37,603 bases of DNA, taken from contig NW_026576641.1 in NCBI RefSeq assembly GCF_028641065.1, forward strand, positions 248,001 through 285,603, given 5' to 3'. Positions 3,693 to 29,557 of this stretch are shown here, one piece after another. Under the pieces are notes generated by a model. That model did no database searches. It was not told where the DNA came from and saw nothing but the letters and a program-made list of their open reading frames with translations. Every line of letters starts with the position of its first letter. Position 1 is the stretch's first letter. Position numbers and translations under genes: made by a program. The DNA is from Leucoraja erinacea. Lineage: Eukaryota.

Positions 3693-4347
3693 GAAGATAA
3701 ACACAAAAAGCTGGAGTAACTCAGCGGGTCAGGCAGCATCTCTGGAGAGAAGGAATCGGTGACGTTTCGGGTCGAGACCCTTCTTCACACTTCAGAAGCG
3801 TCTCGACCCGAAACGTGACATAGAAACATAGAAACTAGGTGCAGGAGTAGGCCATTCGGCCCTTCGAGCCTGCACCGCCATTCAACGTGATCATGGCTGG
3901 TCATCCAACTCAGTATCCTGTACCTGCCTTCACTCCATACCCCCTGATCCCTTTAGCCACAAGGGCCACATCTAACTCCCTCTTAAATATAGTCAATGAT
4001 CTGTGGCCTCAACTACCTTCTGTGGCAGAGAGTTGCAGAGAATCACCACTCTCTGTGTGAAAAATGTTTTTCTCATCTCGGTCCTAAAGGATTTCCCCCT
4101 TATCCTTAAGCTGTGACCCCTTGTTCTGGACTTCCCCAACATCGGGAACAATCTCCCTGCATCTAGCCTGTCCAACCCCTTAAGAATTTTGTAAGTTTCT
4201 ATAAGATCCCCCCTCAATCTTCTAAATTCTAGCGAGTACAAGCCGAGTCTATCCAGTCTTTCTTCATATGAAAGTCCTGACCTATTCTTTTCTCCAGAGA
4301 TGCTGCCTGACCCGCTGAGATACTCCAGCGTTTTGGGTCTATCTTCT
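3693..4347. mobile_element. Inverted Penelope pLTR pair (3693-3818 and 4281-4347) split by a minus-strand CR1 3' fragment (3819-4280)
   Basis: ...GACCCGAAACGTGAC | CR1 tail ATAGAAAC...CR1 RT C-terminus | CCTATTC...GATGCTGCCTGACCCGCTGAG resumes the pLTR consensus. Confidence 0.85.
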
Positions 4348-4774: not shown

Positions 4775-5098
4775 AAGGACACAGAGTGCTGGAGAAACTC
4801 CAGTGGGTCAGGCAGCATCTGTGGAGAACATGGATAGTCGACGTTTCTTGTCTAAACCCTTCTTCAGACTGATTCGGGTGGGTGTGTGAGAGGGGGTGGG
4901 AGGGATGGGATGGTGGAGAAGAGAACTGGAAGAGGGGAGAATGTGTAGGAAAGAACTGCAGATACTGGTTTAAATCGAAGGTAGACACAAAATGCTGGAG
5001 TAACTCAGCGGGACAGGCAGTATCTCTAGAGAGAAGGAATGGGCGACGTTTCGGGTCAAAAGAAGGGTCTCGACCCAAAACGTCACCTATTCTTTCTA
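4775..5098 (-). mobile_element. Two adjacent Penelope pLTR remnants, the second with an inverted arm
   Basis: TGCTGGAG(T/A)AACTC..GGCAGCATCT..GACGTTTC..CCCTTCTTCAGACT consensus; degenerate hammerhead cores. Confidence 0.8.
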
Positions 5099-5124: not shown

Positions 5125-5940
5125 TAATGTAGATAAATGTTAGGCTATCCACTTTGGTAGCAAAAACAGGAAAGCAGATTACTATCTAAATGGCGTCAAG
5201 TTGGGAAAAAGGGAAGTACAACGGGATCTGGGGGTCCTTGTTCATCAGTCAATGAAAGTAAGCATGTAGGTACAGCAGGCAGTGAAGAAAGCGAATGGCA
5301 TGTTGTCCTTTATAACAAGAGGAGTTGAGTATAGGAGCAAATAGGTCCTTCCGCAGTTATACAGGGCCCTAGTGAGACCACACCAGGAGTATTGAGTGCA
5401 GTTTTGGTCACCTAATTTGAGGAAGGACATCCTTGCTATTAGAGGGAGTGCAGCATAGGTTTACCAGGTTAATTCCCGGGATGGCGGGACTGTCATATGC
5501 TGAGAGAATGGAGCGGCTGGGCTTGTACATTCTGGAGTTTAGAAGGATGAGACGGGATCTCATTGAAACATATAAGATTATTAACGGTTTGGACATGCTA
5601 GAGGCAGGAAACATGTTCCCGATGTTGGGGGAGTCCAGAACCAGGGGCTACAGTTTAAGAATAAGGGGTTGGCCATTTAGTATGGAGATGGGGAAACACT
5701 ATTTCTCACAGAGAGTTGTGAGTCTGTGGAATTCTCTGCCTCAGAGGGCGGTGGAGGCCGGTTCTCTGGATACTTTCAAGAGAGAGCTAGATAGGGCTGT
5801 TAAAGATAGTGGAGTCAGGGGATATGGGGAGAAGGCAGGAACGGGGTACTGATTGTGGATGATCAGCCATGGTCACATTGAATGGCGGTGCTGGCTCAAA
5901 GGGCAGAATGGCCTCTACTCCTTCACCTGTTGTCTATTGT
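5125..5940 (+). mobile_element. 5'-truncated CR1 LINE
   Basis: RT C-terminus with stops and frameshifts, conserved 3' UTR and TATTGTC tail. Confidence 0.93.
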
Positions 5941-6295: not shown

Positions 6296-6925
6296 AGTCA
6301 AGTCAAGTCAAGTCACTGTTATTTCTATAGCACATTTAAAAAACAACTCTCGTTGGCCAAAGTGCTTTACATTGGTGGAGATACTAACGTTATACAACAT
6401 TGGTTCATAGATTAAGTACATACATAAATACATACATATAGCCTTCACTCAGAGGACGTCAAGAAAGGCTTGGTAGTAGAGATGAGTTTTAAGTCTCGAC
6501 TTAAAGGAGTCGATGGAGGGGGCAGTTCTGATGGGAAGGGGGATGCTGTTCCACAGTCTAGGAGCTGCAACCGCAAAGACGCGGTCGATCGCCCCTGAGC
6601 TTATGCCTAGACCGCGGGATGTTCAGCAACCCTAAGTCGGCCGATCTGAGGGGCCTGGAGGTGGAGTGGTGGGTGAGAAGACTTTTTATGTAGGTGGGGG
6701 CAAGCCCATTGAGGGCTTTGTAGACATGGAGGAGGATCTTGAAGTTTGTACTGAACCGCACAGGGAGCCATTGGAGAGAGTTTCGCCAGGATCGGGGTGA
6801 TGTGGTCCCTGTATCGGGTGCCCGTCAGGAGTGTCGCTGCGGTGTTTTGGACCAGTTGCAGGCGGGACAGGGAAGATTGGCTGATGCCAGTGTAGAGGGA
6901 GTTGCAGTAATCTAGGCGGGAGGAA
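6296..6925 (-). mobile_element. L2-clade LINE 3' fragment with (TTGAC)n tail
   Basis: SRLDYCNSL..., LHWLPV..FKILLHVYKALNGLAPTYIKSLL; AGTCA repeats at 6296-6316. Confidence 0.9.
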
Positions 6926-7031
6926 ACAGGGTGGAAACAGGCCCTTCGACCTTGATTCGAACTTGCAGCTTCTGGTTCAAAGGACGGTTTGCAGCCGACG
7001 AACGTGGCACTCAGTGGGCAACTACTCTACG

Positions 7032-7733
7032 CTGGGTGTCCTTGTACACCGGTCACTGAAAGTTGGCGTGCAGGTACAGCAGGCAGTGAAGAAAGCTAAT
7101 GGAATGTTGGCCTTCATAACAAGAGGATTTCAGTATAGGAGTAAAGAGGTTCTTCTGCAGTTGTATAGGGCCCTGGTGAGACCACATCTGGAGTATTGTG
7201 TACAGTTTTGGTCTCCTAATTTGATGAAGGACATCTTTGTGATCGAGGGAATGCAGTGTAGGTTCACAAGATTGATCCCTGGGATGGCGGGACTGTCATA
7301 TGAGGAAAGATTGAAAAGGCTAGGCTTGTATTCACTGGAGTTTAGAAGGGTGAGGGGGAGTCTTATAGAAACATATAAAATTATAAAAGGACTGGATAAG
7401 CTAGATGCAGGGAAAATGTTCCCAATGTTGGGCGAGTCCAGAACCAGAGGCCACAGGGGAGGTCACTTAAGACTGAGGTGAGCAAAAAAATATTCTCCCA
7501 GAGAGTTGTGAATTTGTGGAATTCCCTGCCACAGAGGGCAGTGGAGGTCAAGTCACTGGATGGATTTAAGAGAGAGTTAGATAGAGCTCTAGGGGCTGGT
7601 GGAATCAAGGGATATGGGGAGAAGGCAGGCACGGGTTATTGATTGGGGATGATCAGCCATGATCACAATGAATGACAGTGCTGGCTCGAAGGGCCAAATG
7701 GCCTCCTCTTGCACCTGTTTTCTATGTTTATGT
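7032..7733 (+). mobile_element. 5'-truncated CR1 LINE
   Basis: [34 protein letters not shown]; 3' UTR. Confidence 0.93.
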
Positions 7734-10535: not shown

Positions 10536-10683
10536 TAAGAAGGAACTGCTGATGCTGGAAAAATTGAAGGTAGATAAACTCAGCGGGTGGGGCAGCATCT
10601 ATGGAGCGATGGAATAGGTGATGTACGATTCCTTCACTCCATAGATGCTGCCTCACCCGCTGAGTTTCGCCAGCATTTTTATC
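10536..10683. mobile_element. Degenerate inverted Penelope pLTR pair
   Basis: AACTCAGCGGGTGGGGCAGCATCTATGGAG / CTCCATAGATGCTGCCTCACCCGCTGAGTT inverted arms; ribozyme core deleted. Confidence 0.78.
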
Positions 10684-11569
10684 CAGGTAGAACTATCTTA
10701 CACTCAATGTCAAGCATGCATTCAACCCCCGCGTGGTTCCCTGGACAGTGCGTAGTCCCTCTCTACCACCACCCGAGCGTGGGCATAATCCCGGAAAAGG
10801 GACGGGCAGCCGGCTCGGGCAGAGCCCTCTTCTGCCTGGCACCGTGACTCACAGAAATGGCCAGCTTGGCCAGGCCCAGGGGCAACCCAACCAAGACATC
10901 CTCGGTCCTGCTACCCTCTCCCCTACACCCAGAGATGTCCAGAGATGAGGATGGCAGGTGAGAAATGCAAGGAGCAAGCCCCTTTAGAGTATGGAACAGG
11001 GGCCAAATTTGAACTCTTGGCACAGAAATTTACATGAACTAACTGAGCATACGTATATGTCATCAATAACTTCCTTCCCTTTCTCAAACAAATTTTCACC
11101 TCCTTGTGTTTTAATTACAATCCTGACTGTGTTGAGCCATTGAAGGATTGGCACATCCTATTGACTCACTTGTGACACTTCAGTGAGTGTGGAGCTCACT
11201 AGCTAACACTTTGATGTCATTCAGAGGCTGATGCAAGGTGAGGGGAACTAATTTCCTGCAGCTGCCACGACTATTAGCTCCTTCATTTCCTCTACTCACC
11301 CATCATCAATTTCCACTGCCCCACCATTATTTACAGTCTCTGGAATAAGGAGAGGCTGAGCGGGCGAAACTTCACAATTCCTTTTTGTTTAGAATCAAAA
11401 ATATTGATTAAAATATTGAAATAATATTCACAATACAATAAAAACAAAACTTCATTGTGGACATCACTCATCCTTCTAAACTCCAGCGAGTTCAGGCCCA
11501 GTGCCATCATACGCTCAATGTTTCATGTTGAAGCCCCATTGTCAGAACTAGGAAGAAGACAAAATAAGC

Positions 11570-16431: not shown

Positions 16432-16548
16432 ATGACCCTGAACTTCCAGAACGACGCTTTTTGTTCGTACGTTTTCTACTCGGCGCTCTTACTGGTTAAG
16501 ATGTTCGCTGTCGCGATCCTGACTGGCCAAGTTAGGCTTCGCAAGAAG
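16432..16548 (+). CDS. PTGES: Prostaglandin E synthase (mPGES-1, MAPEG family), first coding exon
   Basis: ATG 16432 (A at -3) reads MTLNFQNDAFCSYVFYSALLLVKMFAVAILTGQVRLRKK, followed by a GTAATA donor at 16549 (phase 0). The C-terminal half matches the PTGES exon-1 signature KMYVVAIITGQVRLRKK and ends at the same intron position; MGST1 lacks TGQVRLRKK. Confidence 0.92.
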
Positions 16549-17320: not shown

Positions 17321-17750
17321 GTTCAAGAAGGAACTGCAGATGCTGGAAAATCGAAGGTAGACAAAAATGCTGGAGAAACTCTGCGGGTGAGGCAGCAACT
17401 ATGGAGTGAAGGAAATAGGCAACGTTTCAGGCCGAAACCCTTCTTCAGACCAAAGATCCCATAACGGAATCCTATATGATCCTTGCTTCAGATTGATGCA
17501 GGGAGGTGGGGGAGGGGAAGAAAGGAACAGCAAGGACTGCCTGAAATTGGAGAAGTCAATGTTCATACCGCTGGGGTGTAAACTGCCCAAGCAGAATATG
17601 AGGTGTTGCTCCTCCAATTTGCGGTGGGCCTCACTCTGGCCATGGAGGAGACCCAGGACAGAAAGGTCGGATTCGGAATGGGAGGGGGAGTTGAAGTGCT
17701 GAGCCACAGGGAGATCAGATTGGTTATTGCGGACTGAGCGGAGGTGTTTG
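17321..17750 (-). mobile_element. 5'-truncated Penelope-like element with 11-bp TSD, inserted in an older CR1 3' fragment
   Basis: Minus-strand HLRSVRNNQSDLPVAQHFN...HPSGMNIDFSNFR plus pLTR. GGTGCTAAGGG is duplicated at 17310-17320 and 17751-17761. Confidence 0.9.
17418..17450 (-). ncRNA. Minimal hammerhead motif (UUCG-loop variant)
   Basis: Minus strand GT-CTGAAGA-A-GGGT(TTCG)GCCT-GAAA-C-GTT-GCC; the basal stem II pair has changed to G-U. Confidence 0.6.
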
Positions 17751-18149
17751 GGTGCTAAGGGTGCAGGTGGGGCCAGATACAATAGTGGTATTTGATGTAC
17801 ATATATATGGATATGCAGGGAAATGAGGGATATGGAGGTGGATCATGTATACACAGCTGGGTTAGCTCAGCACAGCCATTGTGGTCTGAAGAGCCCATTC
17901 CTGCATTGTACTGTTCAATTTTCTATGTTCTATGTTTAAGATGTTAGGTTTAAAATATTGTATTTAAAATGTTATTTACCTCACTGTTTCACAAATGGAT
18001 GATTTGAGATGTATTTATTGATGCTGATATTTTTGTTGTGATATATTTATTGCATTTTGAAAATTGTGTAAGTTAATTTTATTCATAATAAAAGTTTCTG
18101 AACCAGAGGAGACAATGCAAAGCCTTTATATTTGGGGGGATAGTTCAGG

Positions 18150-18725
18150 CCACATGGCCCGGCAGAGGTTCACCTGCACCTCCTCTAACCTCATCTATTG
18201 CATCCGCTGCTCCAAGTGTCAGCTGCTCTACATCGGTGAGACCAAGCGCAGGCTTGGCGATCGCTTCGCCCAACACCTCCGCTCAGTTCGCAATAACCAA
18301 CCTGATCTCCCAGTGGCTCAGCACTTCAACTCCCCCTCCCATTCCCAATCCCACCTTTCTGTCCTGGGCCTCCTCCATGGCCAGAGTGAGGATCGCCTTA
18401 AATTGGAGGAGCAGCACCTCATATTTCGCTTGGGCAGTTTACACCCCAGCGGTATGGACATTGACTTCTCCAATTTTAGGTAGTCCCTGCTTTCTCCTTC
18501 CTTCACCTCCCCTTCCCAGCTCTCCCACTGCCTACTGTCTCTGCCTCTTCCTTTCTTCTTCCCATCCCCCCCCCCCCCCCCACCCACCTCACATCAGTCT
18601 GAGGAAGGGTCTCGACCCGAAACGTTGCATATTTCCCTCGCTCCATAGATGCTGCCTCACCCGCCGAGTTTCTCCAGCATTTTTGTCCACCTACAATTTT
18701 TCCAGCATCAGCAGTTCTTTCTTAA
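18150..18725 (+). mobile_element. 5'-truncated Penelope-like element: GIY-YIG endonuclease C-terminus plus pseudo-LTR
   Basis: ORF segment RFTCTSSNLIYCIRCSKCQLLYIGETKRRLGDRFAQHLRSV...VAQHFN...EEQHLIFRLGSLHPSGMDID, stop 18483, then a pyrimidine tract and pLTR. Confidence 0.92.
18597..18628 (+). ncRNA. Minimal type I hammerhead ribozyme motif in Penelope pLTR
   Basis: GT-CTGAGGA-A-GGGT(CTCG)ACCC-GAAA-C-GTT-GC: intact CUGANGA and GAAA core, 4-bp stem II, NUH triplet, palindromic AACGTT stem III. Confidence 0.72.
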
Positions 18726-18749
18726 ACATTTTGGCTCCGTAACAAAAAG

Positions 18750-20547: not shown

Positions 20548-22050
20548 CATAGAAACATAGAAAATAGGTGCAGGAGGAGGTCATTCGGCCCTTCGAGCCA
20601 GCACCGTCATTCATTGTGATCATGGCTGATCGTACCCAATCAATAACCCATGCCTGCCCTCTCCCCATATCCTTTGATTCCACTAGTCCCTAGAGCTCTA
20701 ACTAACTCTCTCTTAAATCCATCCAGTGACTTGGCCTCCACTGCCCTCTGTGGCAGGGAATTCCACAAATTCACAACTCTCTGGGTGAAAAAGTGTTTTC
20801 TCACCTCAGTCTTAAATGGCCTCCCCTGTGGCCTCTGGTTCTGGACTCGCCCAACATTGGGAACATTTTCCCTGCATCTAGCTTGTCCAGGCCTTTTATA
20901 ATTTTATATGTTTCTATAAGACCCATCCCCCTCATCCTTCTAAACTCTAGTGTATACAAGCCTAGCCTTTTCAATCTTTCCTCATATGGCAGTCCCGCCA
21001 TCCCAGGGATCAATCTTGTGAACCTACGCTGCACTGCCTCAATCATAAGGATGTCCTTCCTCTAATTAGGAGACCAAAACTGTACACAATACTCCAGATG
21101 TGGTCTCACCAGAGCCCTATACAACTGCAGAAGAACCCTTTTACTCCTATACTGAAATCCTCGTGAATAAGGCCAACAGCCCCATTAGCTTTCTTCACTG
21201 CCTGCTGTACCTGACACACCAACTTTCCCAGTGACCGGTGGACAAGGTCTCGCTGCACCTCCCCCTTACCAAACCTAATGTTGATAATTAGTGAACGTGA
21301 ACTGAAGCAGAGAATGGATGTAAATGGCAACATGTAATAGAAACATAGAAACATAGAAATTAGGTGCAGGAGTAGGCCATTCGGCCCTTCGAGCCTGCAC
21401 CGCCATTCAATATGATCATGGCTGATCATCCAACTCAGTATCCCGTACCTGCCTTCTCTCCATACCCCCTGATCCCCTTAGCCACTAGGGCCACATCAAT
21501 GAACTGGCCTCAACTACCCTCTGTGGCAGAGAGTTCCAGAGATTCACCACTCTCTGCGTGAAAAAAGTTCTTCACATCTCGGTTTTAAAGGATTTCCCCT
21601 TTATCCTTAAGCTGTGACCCCTTGTCCTGGACTTCCCCAACATCGGGAACAATCTTCCTGCATCTATCCTGTCCAACCCCTTAAGAATTTTGTAAGTTTC
21701 TATAAGATCCCCTCTCAATCTCCTAAATTCTAGAGAGTATAAACCAAGTCTATCCAGTCTTTCTTCATAAGACAGTCCTGACATCCCAGGAATCAGTCTG
21801 GTGAACCGTCTCTGCACTCCCTCTATGGAAATAATGTCCTTGCTCAGATTTGGAGACCAAAACTGTACGCAATACTCCAGGTGTGGTCTCACCAAGACCC
21901 TGTACAACTGCAGTAGAACCTCCCTGCTCCTATACTCAAATCCTTTTGCAATGAAAGCTAACATACCATTCGCTTTCTTCACTGCCTGCTGTACCTGCAC
22001 ACCAACTTTCAGTGACCGGTGTACAAGGTCTCGCTGCACCTCCCCCTTAC
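20548..22050 (-). mobile_element. Two tandem CR1 copies of different subfamilies (20548-21270 and 21339-22050)
   Basis: Each starts on + with an ATAGAAAC tail and carries RT C-terminal ORF remnants. Confidence 0.92.
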
Positions 22051-22399
22051 CGAACCTAATGTTGATAATTAGTGAATGTGAACTGAAGCAGAGAATGGAT
22101 GTAAATGGCAACATGTAAAGGGGTTGAACAGTGCTTTCCAGCAACGTTATTCCCTTCATCCTCTATCCGTACACAGTGGGCAGTGTGTATAGTCATATAT
22201 AGTATTTTTGCTGACTGGACATATACTCGGTCTACGTAACAATAAGCTAAAGTAAACAAAACCACGATCAGTACAGGGACTAATCACGACTTCTCAGAGG
22301 AGATGAACTACAGAGTCACACAGCGCGGAAACAGGCCCTTTGGCCCAACTCACCCATTCCGACCAACATGCCCCATCTATCAATTTGATTTGCCCCAAT

Positions 22400-23777: not shown

Positions 23778-24022
23778 ACAAAGAACTGAAAATGCTGCTG
23801 GTTTAAACCGAACATAGACACAAAGTTAGACGCAAAAAGCTGGAGTGACTCAGCGGGGCAGGCAGAGAGAAGGAATGGGTGGCGTTTCGGGTTGAGACCC
23901 TTTTTCGGACCCGAAACGTCACCAATTCCTCTCCAGGCATGCTGCCTGTCCTGCTCAGAGTTACTCCAGCACTTTGTGCCTGTCTGTGATGCAAACCGGC
24001 ATCTGCAGTTCCTTCCCACACA
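23778..24022. mobile_element. Degenerate inverted Penelope pLTR pair (other single remnants at 19637-19730, 24145-24242, 33595-33688, 35505-35545)
   Basis: CGTTTCGGGTTGAGACCC-TTTTTC-GGACCCGAAACGTCACC centre with flanking inverted arms. Confidence 0.75.
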
Positions 24023-24290
24023 TAAACCCAATGAACCACTGGTTGAATCCTTACCTCTGGTGCTGTCATCGTGGTGTTTGCACGTTCTCCCTGTCATCAT
24101 GTTGGCCCCCCCCCCCCCCCCCCCCCCCCCTTATTAGAAATAAAGGGACTGCAAATGCTGGTTAACGTAAAAAGATACAAAGTGCTGGAGTAACAGCAGG
24201 CCAGGCAGCAACTCTGGTGAACATGGTTAAGTGACGTTTTGGGCAAGTGGCAGGTGGATACAGGAGAGAGGGGGGGGTTCATTAACAGGT

Positions 24291-24502
24291 ACACAAAATG
24301 TTGGAGAAACTCAGCGGGTGCAGCAGCATCTATGGAGCAAAGGAAATAGGCAACGTTTCGGGCCGGGACCCTTCTTCAGACTTTCGGCCCGAAAAGTTGC
24401 CTATATCCTTCGCTCCATAGATGCTGCTGCACCCGGTTAGTTTCTCCAGCACTTTTGTCTATCTTCGATTTTCCAGCATCTGCAGTTCCTTCTTAAAAAA
24501 AA
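24291..24502. mobile_element. ORF-less inverted Penelope pLTR pair with 12-bp TSD
   Basis: Arms ~24291-24365 and ~24385-24460 are reverse complements. TCATTAACAGGT occurs at 24279-24290 and 24503-24514; short A tract at the 3' end. Confidence 0.85.
24349..24381 (-). ncRNA. Minimal hammerhead motif, intact core
   Basis: Minus strand GT-CTGAAGA-A-GGGT(CCCG)GCCC-GAAA-C-GTT-GCC. Confidence 0.7.
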
Positions 24503-29295: not shown

Positions 29296-29382
29296 CTGGT
29301 GAGGGGACGGGGGGGGAGAGGGGGGCGAGAGGTGGAGAGGGTCAGCCTCACAGGAACAAAAAAAGTCCATAGACATAGACAA

Positions 29383-29557
29383 TAGTGCTGGAGAAACTCA
29401 GCAGGTGCAGCAGCATCTAGGGAGCGAAGGAAATAGGCGACGTTTCGGCCCAAAACGTTGCCTATTTCCTTCACTCCATAGATGCTGCCGCACCCGCTGA
29501 GTTTCTCCAGCACTTTTGTCTACCTTCGATTTTCCAGCATCTGCAGTTCTTTCTTCA
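29383..29557. mobile_element. ORF-less inverted Penelope pLTR pair with 10-bp TSD in RGS last intron
   Basis: Palindrome centred on GACGTTTCGGCCCAAAACGTTG; ACATAGACAA at 29373-29382 and 29558-29567. Confidence 0.8.

Follow-up and report, generated by a model that had tools for sequence, protein, structure and literature searches.

Hammerhead-type motifs in the pseudo-LTRs of an abundant, putatively Neptune-type Penelope-like element of Leucoraja erinacea

In a 37,603-nucleotide stretch of the Leucoraja erinacea genome (the window), a short motif downstream of a retrotransposon endonuclease remnant raises the question of whether it is a hammerhead ribozyme and, if so, what such a ribozyme does for the Penelope-like element (PLE) that carries it. 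The role of hammerheads in the PLE life cycle is called unclear in PMC8557442 and is left open in PMC4209133 and PMC11167929. A family that is young and apparently active, and that has left about 0.8 million countable end repeats, bears on this role. Results of our analysis give us reasonable confidence in the reading of this motif as a minimal type I hammerhead sequence within the pseudo-LTR (pLTR) of an abundant Neptune-type PLE, likely under selection in the source elements and neutral in the scattered copies, with weak cutting predicted that would be assisted by dimerisation or by the protein of the element.

The focal motif, its host element and its copies

The motif occupies positions 18597-18628 of the plus strand and reads GT-CTGAGGA-A-GGGT(CTCG)ACCC-GAAA-C-GTT-GC, exactly as originally predicted, and lies 113 nt 3' of the GIY-YIG stop, where a distance of about 115 nt had been given (Table 1). 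All 11 core bases, the extra base 9.1, the diagnostic pair G10.1-C11.1 (G18607-C18618) and the palindromic 15.2/16.2 are present. With the published diagnostic features all in place, the assignment to the minimal type I hammerheads of PLE pLTRs holds, and the family is a further instance of this published class, unusual in its number.

Table 1. Features of the focal copy and of related copies in the window
Feature	Position	Strand	Basis or remark
GIY-YIG endonuclease remnant, 3' end of PLE ORF, 5'-truncated copy	18157..18483	+	Pfam PF01541, E 4.7e-5
Stop TAG of endonuclease frame	18481-18483	+	sequence
Subfamily 3' UTR, pyrimidine-rich, terminating in CACATCAG	18484..18593	+	sequence, subfamily groups
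TCAGTCT, initiator-like; homologous to usual start of short family copies	18594..18600	+	putative function
Minimal type I hammerhead motif, whole	18597..18628	+	numbering and features as in PMC4209133
Stem I 5' strand GU	18597-18598	+	sequence
Core CUGAGGA (C3-A9)	18599-18605	+	sequence
Unpaired extra base A9.1	18606	+	sequence
Stem II GGGU/ACCC, loop CUCG	18607-18610 and 18615-18618	+	sequence
GAAA (G12-A15.1)	18619-18622	+	sequence
Palindromic CG (C15.2-G16.2)	18623-18624	+	sequence
U16.1; U17; predicted cut	18625; 18626; 18626/18627	+	sequence
Stem I 3' strand GC	18627-18628	+	2-bp stem I: U-G, G-C
pLTR tail, focal copy	18627..18728	+	longer of two family 3' ends
Second strictly intact motif, arm of head-to-head pair 24290-24491	24350..24381	-	
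Second endonuclease-bearing truncated copy; motif 17419-17450 with G10.1-U11.1	17328..17751	-	
Decayed copy, both core boxes kept, stem II broken	4778..4872	-	
Decayed copy, C3 to G, short inverted piece at 5' end	3694..3822	-	
Head-to-head inverted pair, junction within motif; spurious Rfam microRNA-precursor matches	29374..29552	.	
Head-to-head tail pair, motif lost	10540..10687	.	
Head-to-head pair, junction within motif	23821..23985	.	

Copies of the focal endonuclease remnant elsewhere in the genome are about 90% identical to it and match from query residue 3 onward; no target-site duplication (TSD) was found around the focal copy. About 2 kb upstream, on the same strand, lies a PTGES-like first coding exon (16432-16548, +) that is followed by GT and is matched by human PTGES chains at E 6e-6, and the focal copy is likely intronic; the contig of the window was not among the matches listed in a MAPEG search of the genome. 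Nothing suggests that the focal motif cuts the PTGES-like host RNA. Elsewhere in the window, a short frame (36003-36230, -) weakly resembles an exon of an RGS domain, its matches being RGS4 and RGS8 at E 0.17-0.6, and there are many 3'-end fragments of LINE reverse transcriptases, which we take to be CR1-like (e.g., 5421-5852, 6885-7481, 21572-22162 and 34930-35523).

The complete host element encodes a single ORF with a reverse transcriptase (RT) and, at its C terminus, a GIY-YIG endonuclease (RVT_1 at E 1e-6 and GIY-YIG at E 0.006, both slightly under the Pfam cut-offs), joined by a CX4CxxC linker (CGRSRCNTC in locus L057, CNRRKCYTC in older copies). The order of RT, CX2-5CxxC linker and GIY-YIG domain is the Neptune layout (PMC8557442). 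The host is therefore probably a Neptune-type PLE, a clade assignment made by the linker motif alone, and the CX2-5CxxC linker type occurs in Nematis too. The closest named homologues of the endonuclease come from rays and sharks (55-70% identity). In a first look, the genome yielded 105,968 candidates for the endonuclease piece and 7,396 for the N-terminal piece of the RT. Between the predicted cut and the first ATG there is a distance of 136 nt.

The arrangement of the element was read from 18 long-frame loci. Four of them (L054, L055, L057 and L065) are direct tandems in which the RT-endonuclease ORF stands between two motifs about 3.7-3.96 kb apart, and young tandem units measure about 3.9 kb; several other long-frame loci carry an inverted copy at the 5' end. 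The family thus includes the tandem and inverted pLTR arrangement with an optional tail. The frames of young elements reach 1,085 aa in L053, and in L057 (5580-6986) the RT is preceded by some 470 N-terminal residues that are rich in proline and internally repetitive and have no Pfam match. In L044 (500-5120), units of about 28 nt, repeated in tandem over 4.6 kb and with long open frames, stand directly upstream of a truncated PLE copy, and two opposite-strand frames in L050 resemble a different retroelement, presumably RT/RNase H-like and DIRS-like.

The original prediction counted at least 12 intact or degenerate copies of the motif in the window. With a profile built solely from the sequence after the cut, 23 end-repeat tails were found there, and this abundance stands, but both core boxes are kept in only four of the 23 and the motif is strictly intact in two (18597, +, and 24381, -). 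Accordingly, among the four copies named as the best ones besides the focal one, that at 24381 (-) is strictly intact, whereas the one at 17450 (-) has G10.1-U11.1, the one at 4869 (-) has a broken stem II and that at 3758-3790 has lost C3 to G. Matches to Rfam microRNAs in the window are head-to-head pairs and low-complexity tracts and were rejected as microRNA precursors.

The density predicted for the family is borne out across the genome. In 120 evenly spaced 10-kb stretches of large contigs, picked by position only (1.2 Mb), there are 446 tails (none in a reversed control), that is, one per 2.7 kb, which agrees with the remnant per roughly 3 kb estimated from the window. A general minimal-hammerhead descriptor gave 70 matches in this sample against two in the control, and 23 motifs are strictly intact against none. 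Scaled to the genome of 2.19 Gb, these counts correspond to about 0.8 million end repeats, about 130,000 descriptor matches and about 42,000 strict motifs, the last with a Poisson range of 26,000-60,000 and a wider true spread. Counts of exact matches are on the same scale as the extrapolation: one 32-mer of GUC type occurs 9,203 times in the genome and its reversed control never, the young core occurs 26,372 times, and this core followed by 40 nt of tail 8,437 times. Published counts of such motifs are about 4,000 in the coelacanth and about 9,000 in X. tropicalis (PMC4209133). The number found here may exceed any yet reported for a single genome, although the type of motif itself is known.

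Copy ends and the putative start of the element RNA

What kind of RNA the copies were made from can be read from their 5' ends. Among the 446 sampled tails, 273 have a profile match that starts no more than four positions from the cut, and sufficient flank. None of these copies begins at the cut, 14 begin within 4 nt of it and 177 reach -28. Among the 160 that reach -29, the sequence continues into a known UTR in 49 and does not in 111, the latter figure being possibly inflated by old subfamilies that the UTR panel misses (in about 7 of 67 the flank seems to be a UTR that the panel lacks). The young copies give a sharper picture. The first 30 of 33,808 exact tail matches, picked by the tail alone, comprise 12 long copies (past -110) and 18 short ones, and again none starts at the cut. 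Among the short copies, the start lies between -26 and -33 in fourteen; in two others, which have lost 4 nt internally, it is close to -30 and -35, and in the last two it is inside stem II. Exact TSDs of 10-16 bp flank eight of the 18. No stop between -36 and -110 was found in the 12 long copies. The by-eye count of 15/27 against 0/12 gives p 0.0009 in Fisher's test; loci L210 and L213 were counted as one event because they share flanks. Genome-wide, 7,606 of the 26,372 young cores (29%) keep the 11 letters of UTR upstream.

Had a cut RNA served as the template, copies would be expected to start at the cut, and none do; the short copies span the cut site, which implies that their template was uncut. 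The place where they start coincides with YYAGTCT, which is present at the 5' edge of the motif in all subfamilies despite their unrelated UTRs and is similar to an initiator, whose consensus is YYANWYY. Transcription may start at this heptamer, in which case the RNA of the element would begin with the hammerhead as its first ~31 nt. The element RT would then prime at an internal site, 65 or 101 nt beyond the cut, consistent with the two 3' ends of the family at about +65 and +101; when primed in the 5' repeat it would run off the 5' end of the RNA, and the run-off cDNA would be inserted as a copy of 95-135 bp with a TSD. From the positions of the copy ends we consider it likely that the short copies are run-off copies of an uncut RNA beginning at the 5' edge of the motif. 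An RNA copied uncut, and likely beginning there, narrows the roles that the ribozyme could play. A clear excess of an untemplated, cap-derived G was not seen at the 5' junctions. In one short copy (L209), a duplicated piece of its own 5' end lies between the TSD and the element, as would result from template jumping at an RNA end.

A different origin of the short-copy starts, which we regard as possible but rather unlikely, is stalling or template switching of the RT at the hairpin, at the TCAGTCTGA near-palindrome or at the C-rich tract, or else splicing to a YAG acceptor. In its favour, an inverted copy abuts 44 of the 111 short sampled copies, with microhomology at the junction, and head-to-head pairs, a known trait of PLEs (PMC3846280), contain 132 of the 446 tails. 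Splicing agrees with the pyrimidine tract and YAG that precede the core in every subfamily, and with an intron of D. virilis that ends at helix I (PMC4209133). However, short copies that have clean TSDs and no inverted neighbour start at the same place, and none of the 12 young copies that pass -35 stops in the C-rich tract. The standing of the splice acceptor is further lowered by the lack of a conserved donor, by a branch-like CTGAC that lies too close to the AG and by the lack of an upstream exon common to the short copies.

Three RNA runs of 2026 (1-5% of each) and one contig set, mapped to a young unit, speak against splicing as well. The commonest loose end of RNA at the proposed start is contiguous in the genome at locus L193 and not spliced, and among the joints listed none, of GT-AG type or otherwise, ends at the YAG before the core. 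Among the positions listed for the mapped reads, molecule starts or ends accumulate neither at the cut nor at the proposed start, a weak result, since these poorly suited libraries are blind to caps and cyclic phosphates and are swamped by host read-through. As expected from such read-through, depth is highest on the bin of motif and tail, on both strands. Several hundred reads of the bulk RNA run X24 come from one short young copy (L193, 1490-1620), which places this copy within an abundant host transcript; a junction related to that of L193 was found 39 kb away in L194.

Conservation, decay and predicted folding

Between six groups of copies defined by unrelated UTRs, 1 of 22 positions of core and stems varies as compared to 19 of 59 positions of the tail (Fisher p 0.009). 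The core taken by itself (1/11 vs. 19/59, p 0.16) does not differ significantly, so that the excess of core conservation expected across subfamilies is seen for core and stems together but not for the core only. The single varying core position is G12, changed by CpG decay in two groups of 4 and 5 copies; the remaining changes between groups concern the loop, position 11.4 (A or G, both of which pair with U) and H17 (C or U). We conclude that the motif is likely maintained by selection in the source elements. In the dispersed copies, in contrast, G12, which is part of a CpG, is A in 28 of 124 filtered copies, and other CpG sites are changed in 19-24%; loss at the rate of other CpG sites indicates that these copies decay neutrally.

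The features of the class were scored in the 70 descriptor matches of the sample. The unpaired base 9.1 bulges in 65 of them, and positions 15.2/16.2 are CG in 43 and TG or CA, the products of CpG decay, in 24. In stem I, U2.1 pairs in 61 and G2.2 in 54 and nothing pairs beyond; a longer stem I was rejected, as position 2.3/1.3 is A/C in 48 of the 70. A stem I of 2-3 bp had been regarded as a weakness of the prediction. It is in fact 2 bp, where published examples range from 2 to 5 bp, and short forms of this stem seem to be common among such hammerheads. The claim that variation preserves pairing is true of this family and yet carries little weight, because only one-sided changes of the U-A to U-G type occur, and no two-sided (compensatory) change was found within this genome's family.

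Covariation was found among relatives in metagenomes. A scan that held the core and G10.1-C11.1 constant and let the inner stem vary found 57 loci. Their inner sequences are of 46 different kinds, and 29 of the 46 form a stem II of at least 4 bp (at least three further pairs). Shuffled sequences reached a mean of 3.1 and a maximum of 10, and swapped partners a mean of 8.9 and a maximum of 18 in 5000. Every position of the stem has A-U, G-C, C-G, U-A and G-U pairs. Of the 29 sequences that form stem II, 28 have A or G at 1.1, and stem I is mostly of 1-3 bp. These results indicate that the fold is real as a class and that a short stem I is usual in it; an endonuclease match was present in the available flank of three of the 57 loci, and the PLE identity of the remainder is mostly assumed. 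In some of these relatives (within L225-L281, e.g., L231, L228, L248 and L266), an AG-GTA-like splice donor follows the predicted cut by 5-15 nt, a sequence pattern that suggests that other lineages have a start-proximal hammerhead with an intron behind it. Two loci of the skate genome, L064 (+, 6930) and L067 (-, 1616), hold divergent motifs with stems II of GGUU/AACC and GGGCU/GGCCU and possibly represent older or separate PLE families.

Predicted folds of single copies do not favour the active form. In 60-nt folds of six real copies, the probability of stem II is at most 0.08 and that of stem I at most 0.005. In all six, a competing hairpin is predicted in which the GAAG-A-AGGG of the core pairs with the CCUUC pyrimidine run that directly follows the cut. 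The first 60 nt are not unusually stable, with fold z-scores of +0.3 to +0.9. The loop-less, palindromic stem III had been taken to point to a dimer, and rightly so; the architecture and the argument are already published (PMC4209133). A modelled active double hammerhead reaches -6 to -7.5 kcal/mol vs. -23 to -27 for two free monomers, which makes it 16-20 kcal/mol less stable by prediction. In the youngest subfamily, moreover, the model allows the AACGUU palindrome to pair A14 with U17. This subfamily has GUU at the cut, a triplet that is slower than GUC. It is a permitted one (PMC3138052). Published relatives are inactive as monomers, and schistosome dimer or trimer constructs are weakly active (PMC4209133), while the Anolis PLE hammerhead cuts only with protein and is dispensable for insertion (PMC11167929). 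We hold hammerhead activity in the source elements to be plausible, with somewhat more for it than against it. It is unlikely to be of relevance in the dispersed copies.

The 2-bp stem I and the stronger competing hairpin would also be expected of a hammerhead by descent that is catalytically dead, the block being kept as a core promoter (initiator and downstream element), as a protein-binding signal or as an RT-template signal. Consistent with a promoter, YYAGTCT persists in all subfamilies although their UTRs are unrelated, and Drosophila Penelope has an internal promoter with an Inr and the downstream element RGACGTGY (PMC2377424), to which AAACGTC of the present family bears a loose likeness; the tail is well conserved too. 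Such a dead motif seems improbable to us, since all changes of stems I and II between subfamilies keep the pairing, the same core occurs with a wholly different paired stem II in unrelated contigs, and the Anolis motif cuts once protein is added (PMC11167929).

More improbable still is a very large family of working ribozymes, the dimeric cleavage of which would process the retrotransposition RNA or cut host transcripts that bear copies. The number of motifs is indeed very large, with about 40,000 strictly intact ones by extrapolation, true tandems place two motifs on one RNA, and the low activity of the schistosome dimer and trimer constructs (PMC4209133) could be counted in its favour. However, none of the 23 strict motifs of the sample has an intact same-strand partner within its own 10-kb stretch, and the 33 close same-strand pairs among the 446 tails include no intact pair. 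The decay of G12 at the pace of other CpGs, the absence of copies that start at the cut and of read ends piling up there, and the catalytic mutants of the Anolis element, which left insertion unaffected (PMC11167929), point in the same direction. The predicted very large ribozyme family is, judging from the decay of most of its copies, a very large family of motifs in which working ribozymes are unlikely among the dispersed members; scattered copies likely cut little or nothing.

Chance resemblance within a repeat is scarcely credible, as the location in a PLE pLTR, the full set of published diagnostic features, the excess of descriptor matches over the control and the covariation across lineages outweigh the chance-level number of the bare pattern CTGANGA-N(1-25)-GAAA in the window (4 found vs. 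3.2 expected) and the lack of a hammerhead in an Rfam scan of the window with E up to 5.

Returning to the reading of the motif as a hammerhead that is selected in source elements, we tentatively propose that the RNA of the element begins with it as its first 31 nt, that the hundreds of thousands of insertions of 95-135 bp are strong-stop-like cDNAs made on an uncut 5' repeat, and that the ribozyme acts as a gated switch of the RNA 5' end rather than in the preparation of the template. The competing hairpin would hold the RNA in an inactive fold (off), and dimerisation or the ORF protein would release it (on); the ribozyme, once switched on, would remove the cap and so move the RNA from translation to another step. 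If this is true, the genome holds a very deep record, at single-base resolution, of where the RNA of a vertebrate PLE starts, of the two sites at which it is primed and of the step of inversion. The pattern of copy ends is the part of the results that could be of use to specialists.

Comparison with known systems

The motif corresponds most directly to the minimal hammerheads described by Cervera and de la Pena (2014, PMC4209133) in the pLTRs of metazoan PLEs, including Xena, Poseidon and Neptune of fish. The core boxes, base 9.1 and G10.1-C11.1 are the same, and likewise there is no loop III, 15.2/16.2 are palindromic, the need for a dimer was inferred, and most copies are solo, with few inside full PLEs. 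Stem I is 2 bp here, as in D. virilis, and 4-5 bp in schistosomes; stem II, of 4 bp here, differs from the motifs of that study. Motifs are about 5-30 times more numerous than in the coelacanth or X. tropicalis, by descriptors that are not identical. The accessible part of that paper names no cartilaginous fish, and our literature search found no report of shark or skate PLE hammerheads or of strong-stop-like PLE copies, although Repbase, Dfam or Lunse 2017 may include the family. The small PLE hammerhead variants of Lunse, Weinberg and Breaker (2017), which cleave as dimers, share with it the diminished stem III and the link to PLEs (PMC6765202).

With the Neptune-clade, endonuclease-bearing PLEs analysed by Craig et al. 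(2021, PMC8557442), the family shares partial tandems, inverted 5'-truncated copies and the optional tail, and it differs from the elements described there in its long proline-rich N-terminal region. Its ~0.8 million end repeats lie far above the tens of thousands that were called exceptional for Naiads. The non-LTR retrozymes (Li et al. 2026, preprint 10.64898/2026.07.22.740005) are also non-coding, hammerhead-bearing PLE derivatives, and they occur in one chondrichthyan, too. They are built as tandem arrays, every unit of which has an intact motif, whereas the copies here are mostly solo or head-to-head and give no indication of a cycle of cutting and circularisation. Identity with them was rejected because 0/23 strict motifs have an intact same-strand neighbour in 10 kb, as was a cut-to-cut retrozyme unit because 0/273 and 0/30 copies start at the cut (DNA evidence only).

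In Anolis carolinensis, the Poseidon element PAc (PMC11167929; Frangieh et al. 2024) illustrates how such an RNA can be used. The first ATG of PAc lies inside stem II and that of the present, Neptune-type family downstream of the cut, and the clustering of short-copy 5' ends at the 5' edge of the motif has no counterpart in the accessible account of PAc. As here, RNA-seq ends were not observed at the cut site of PAc. Its two internal RT start sites bound a tail of 30-40 nt, comparable to the +65 and +101 ends of the skate copies, and PAc, too, combines a hammerhead in its pLTR with the use of uncut RNA for insertion.
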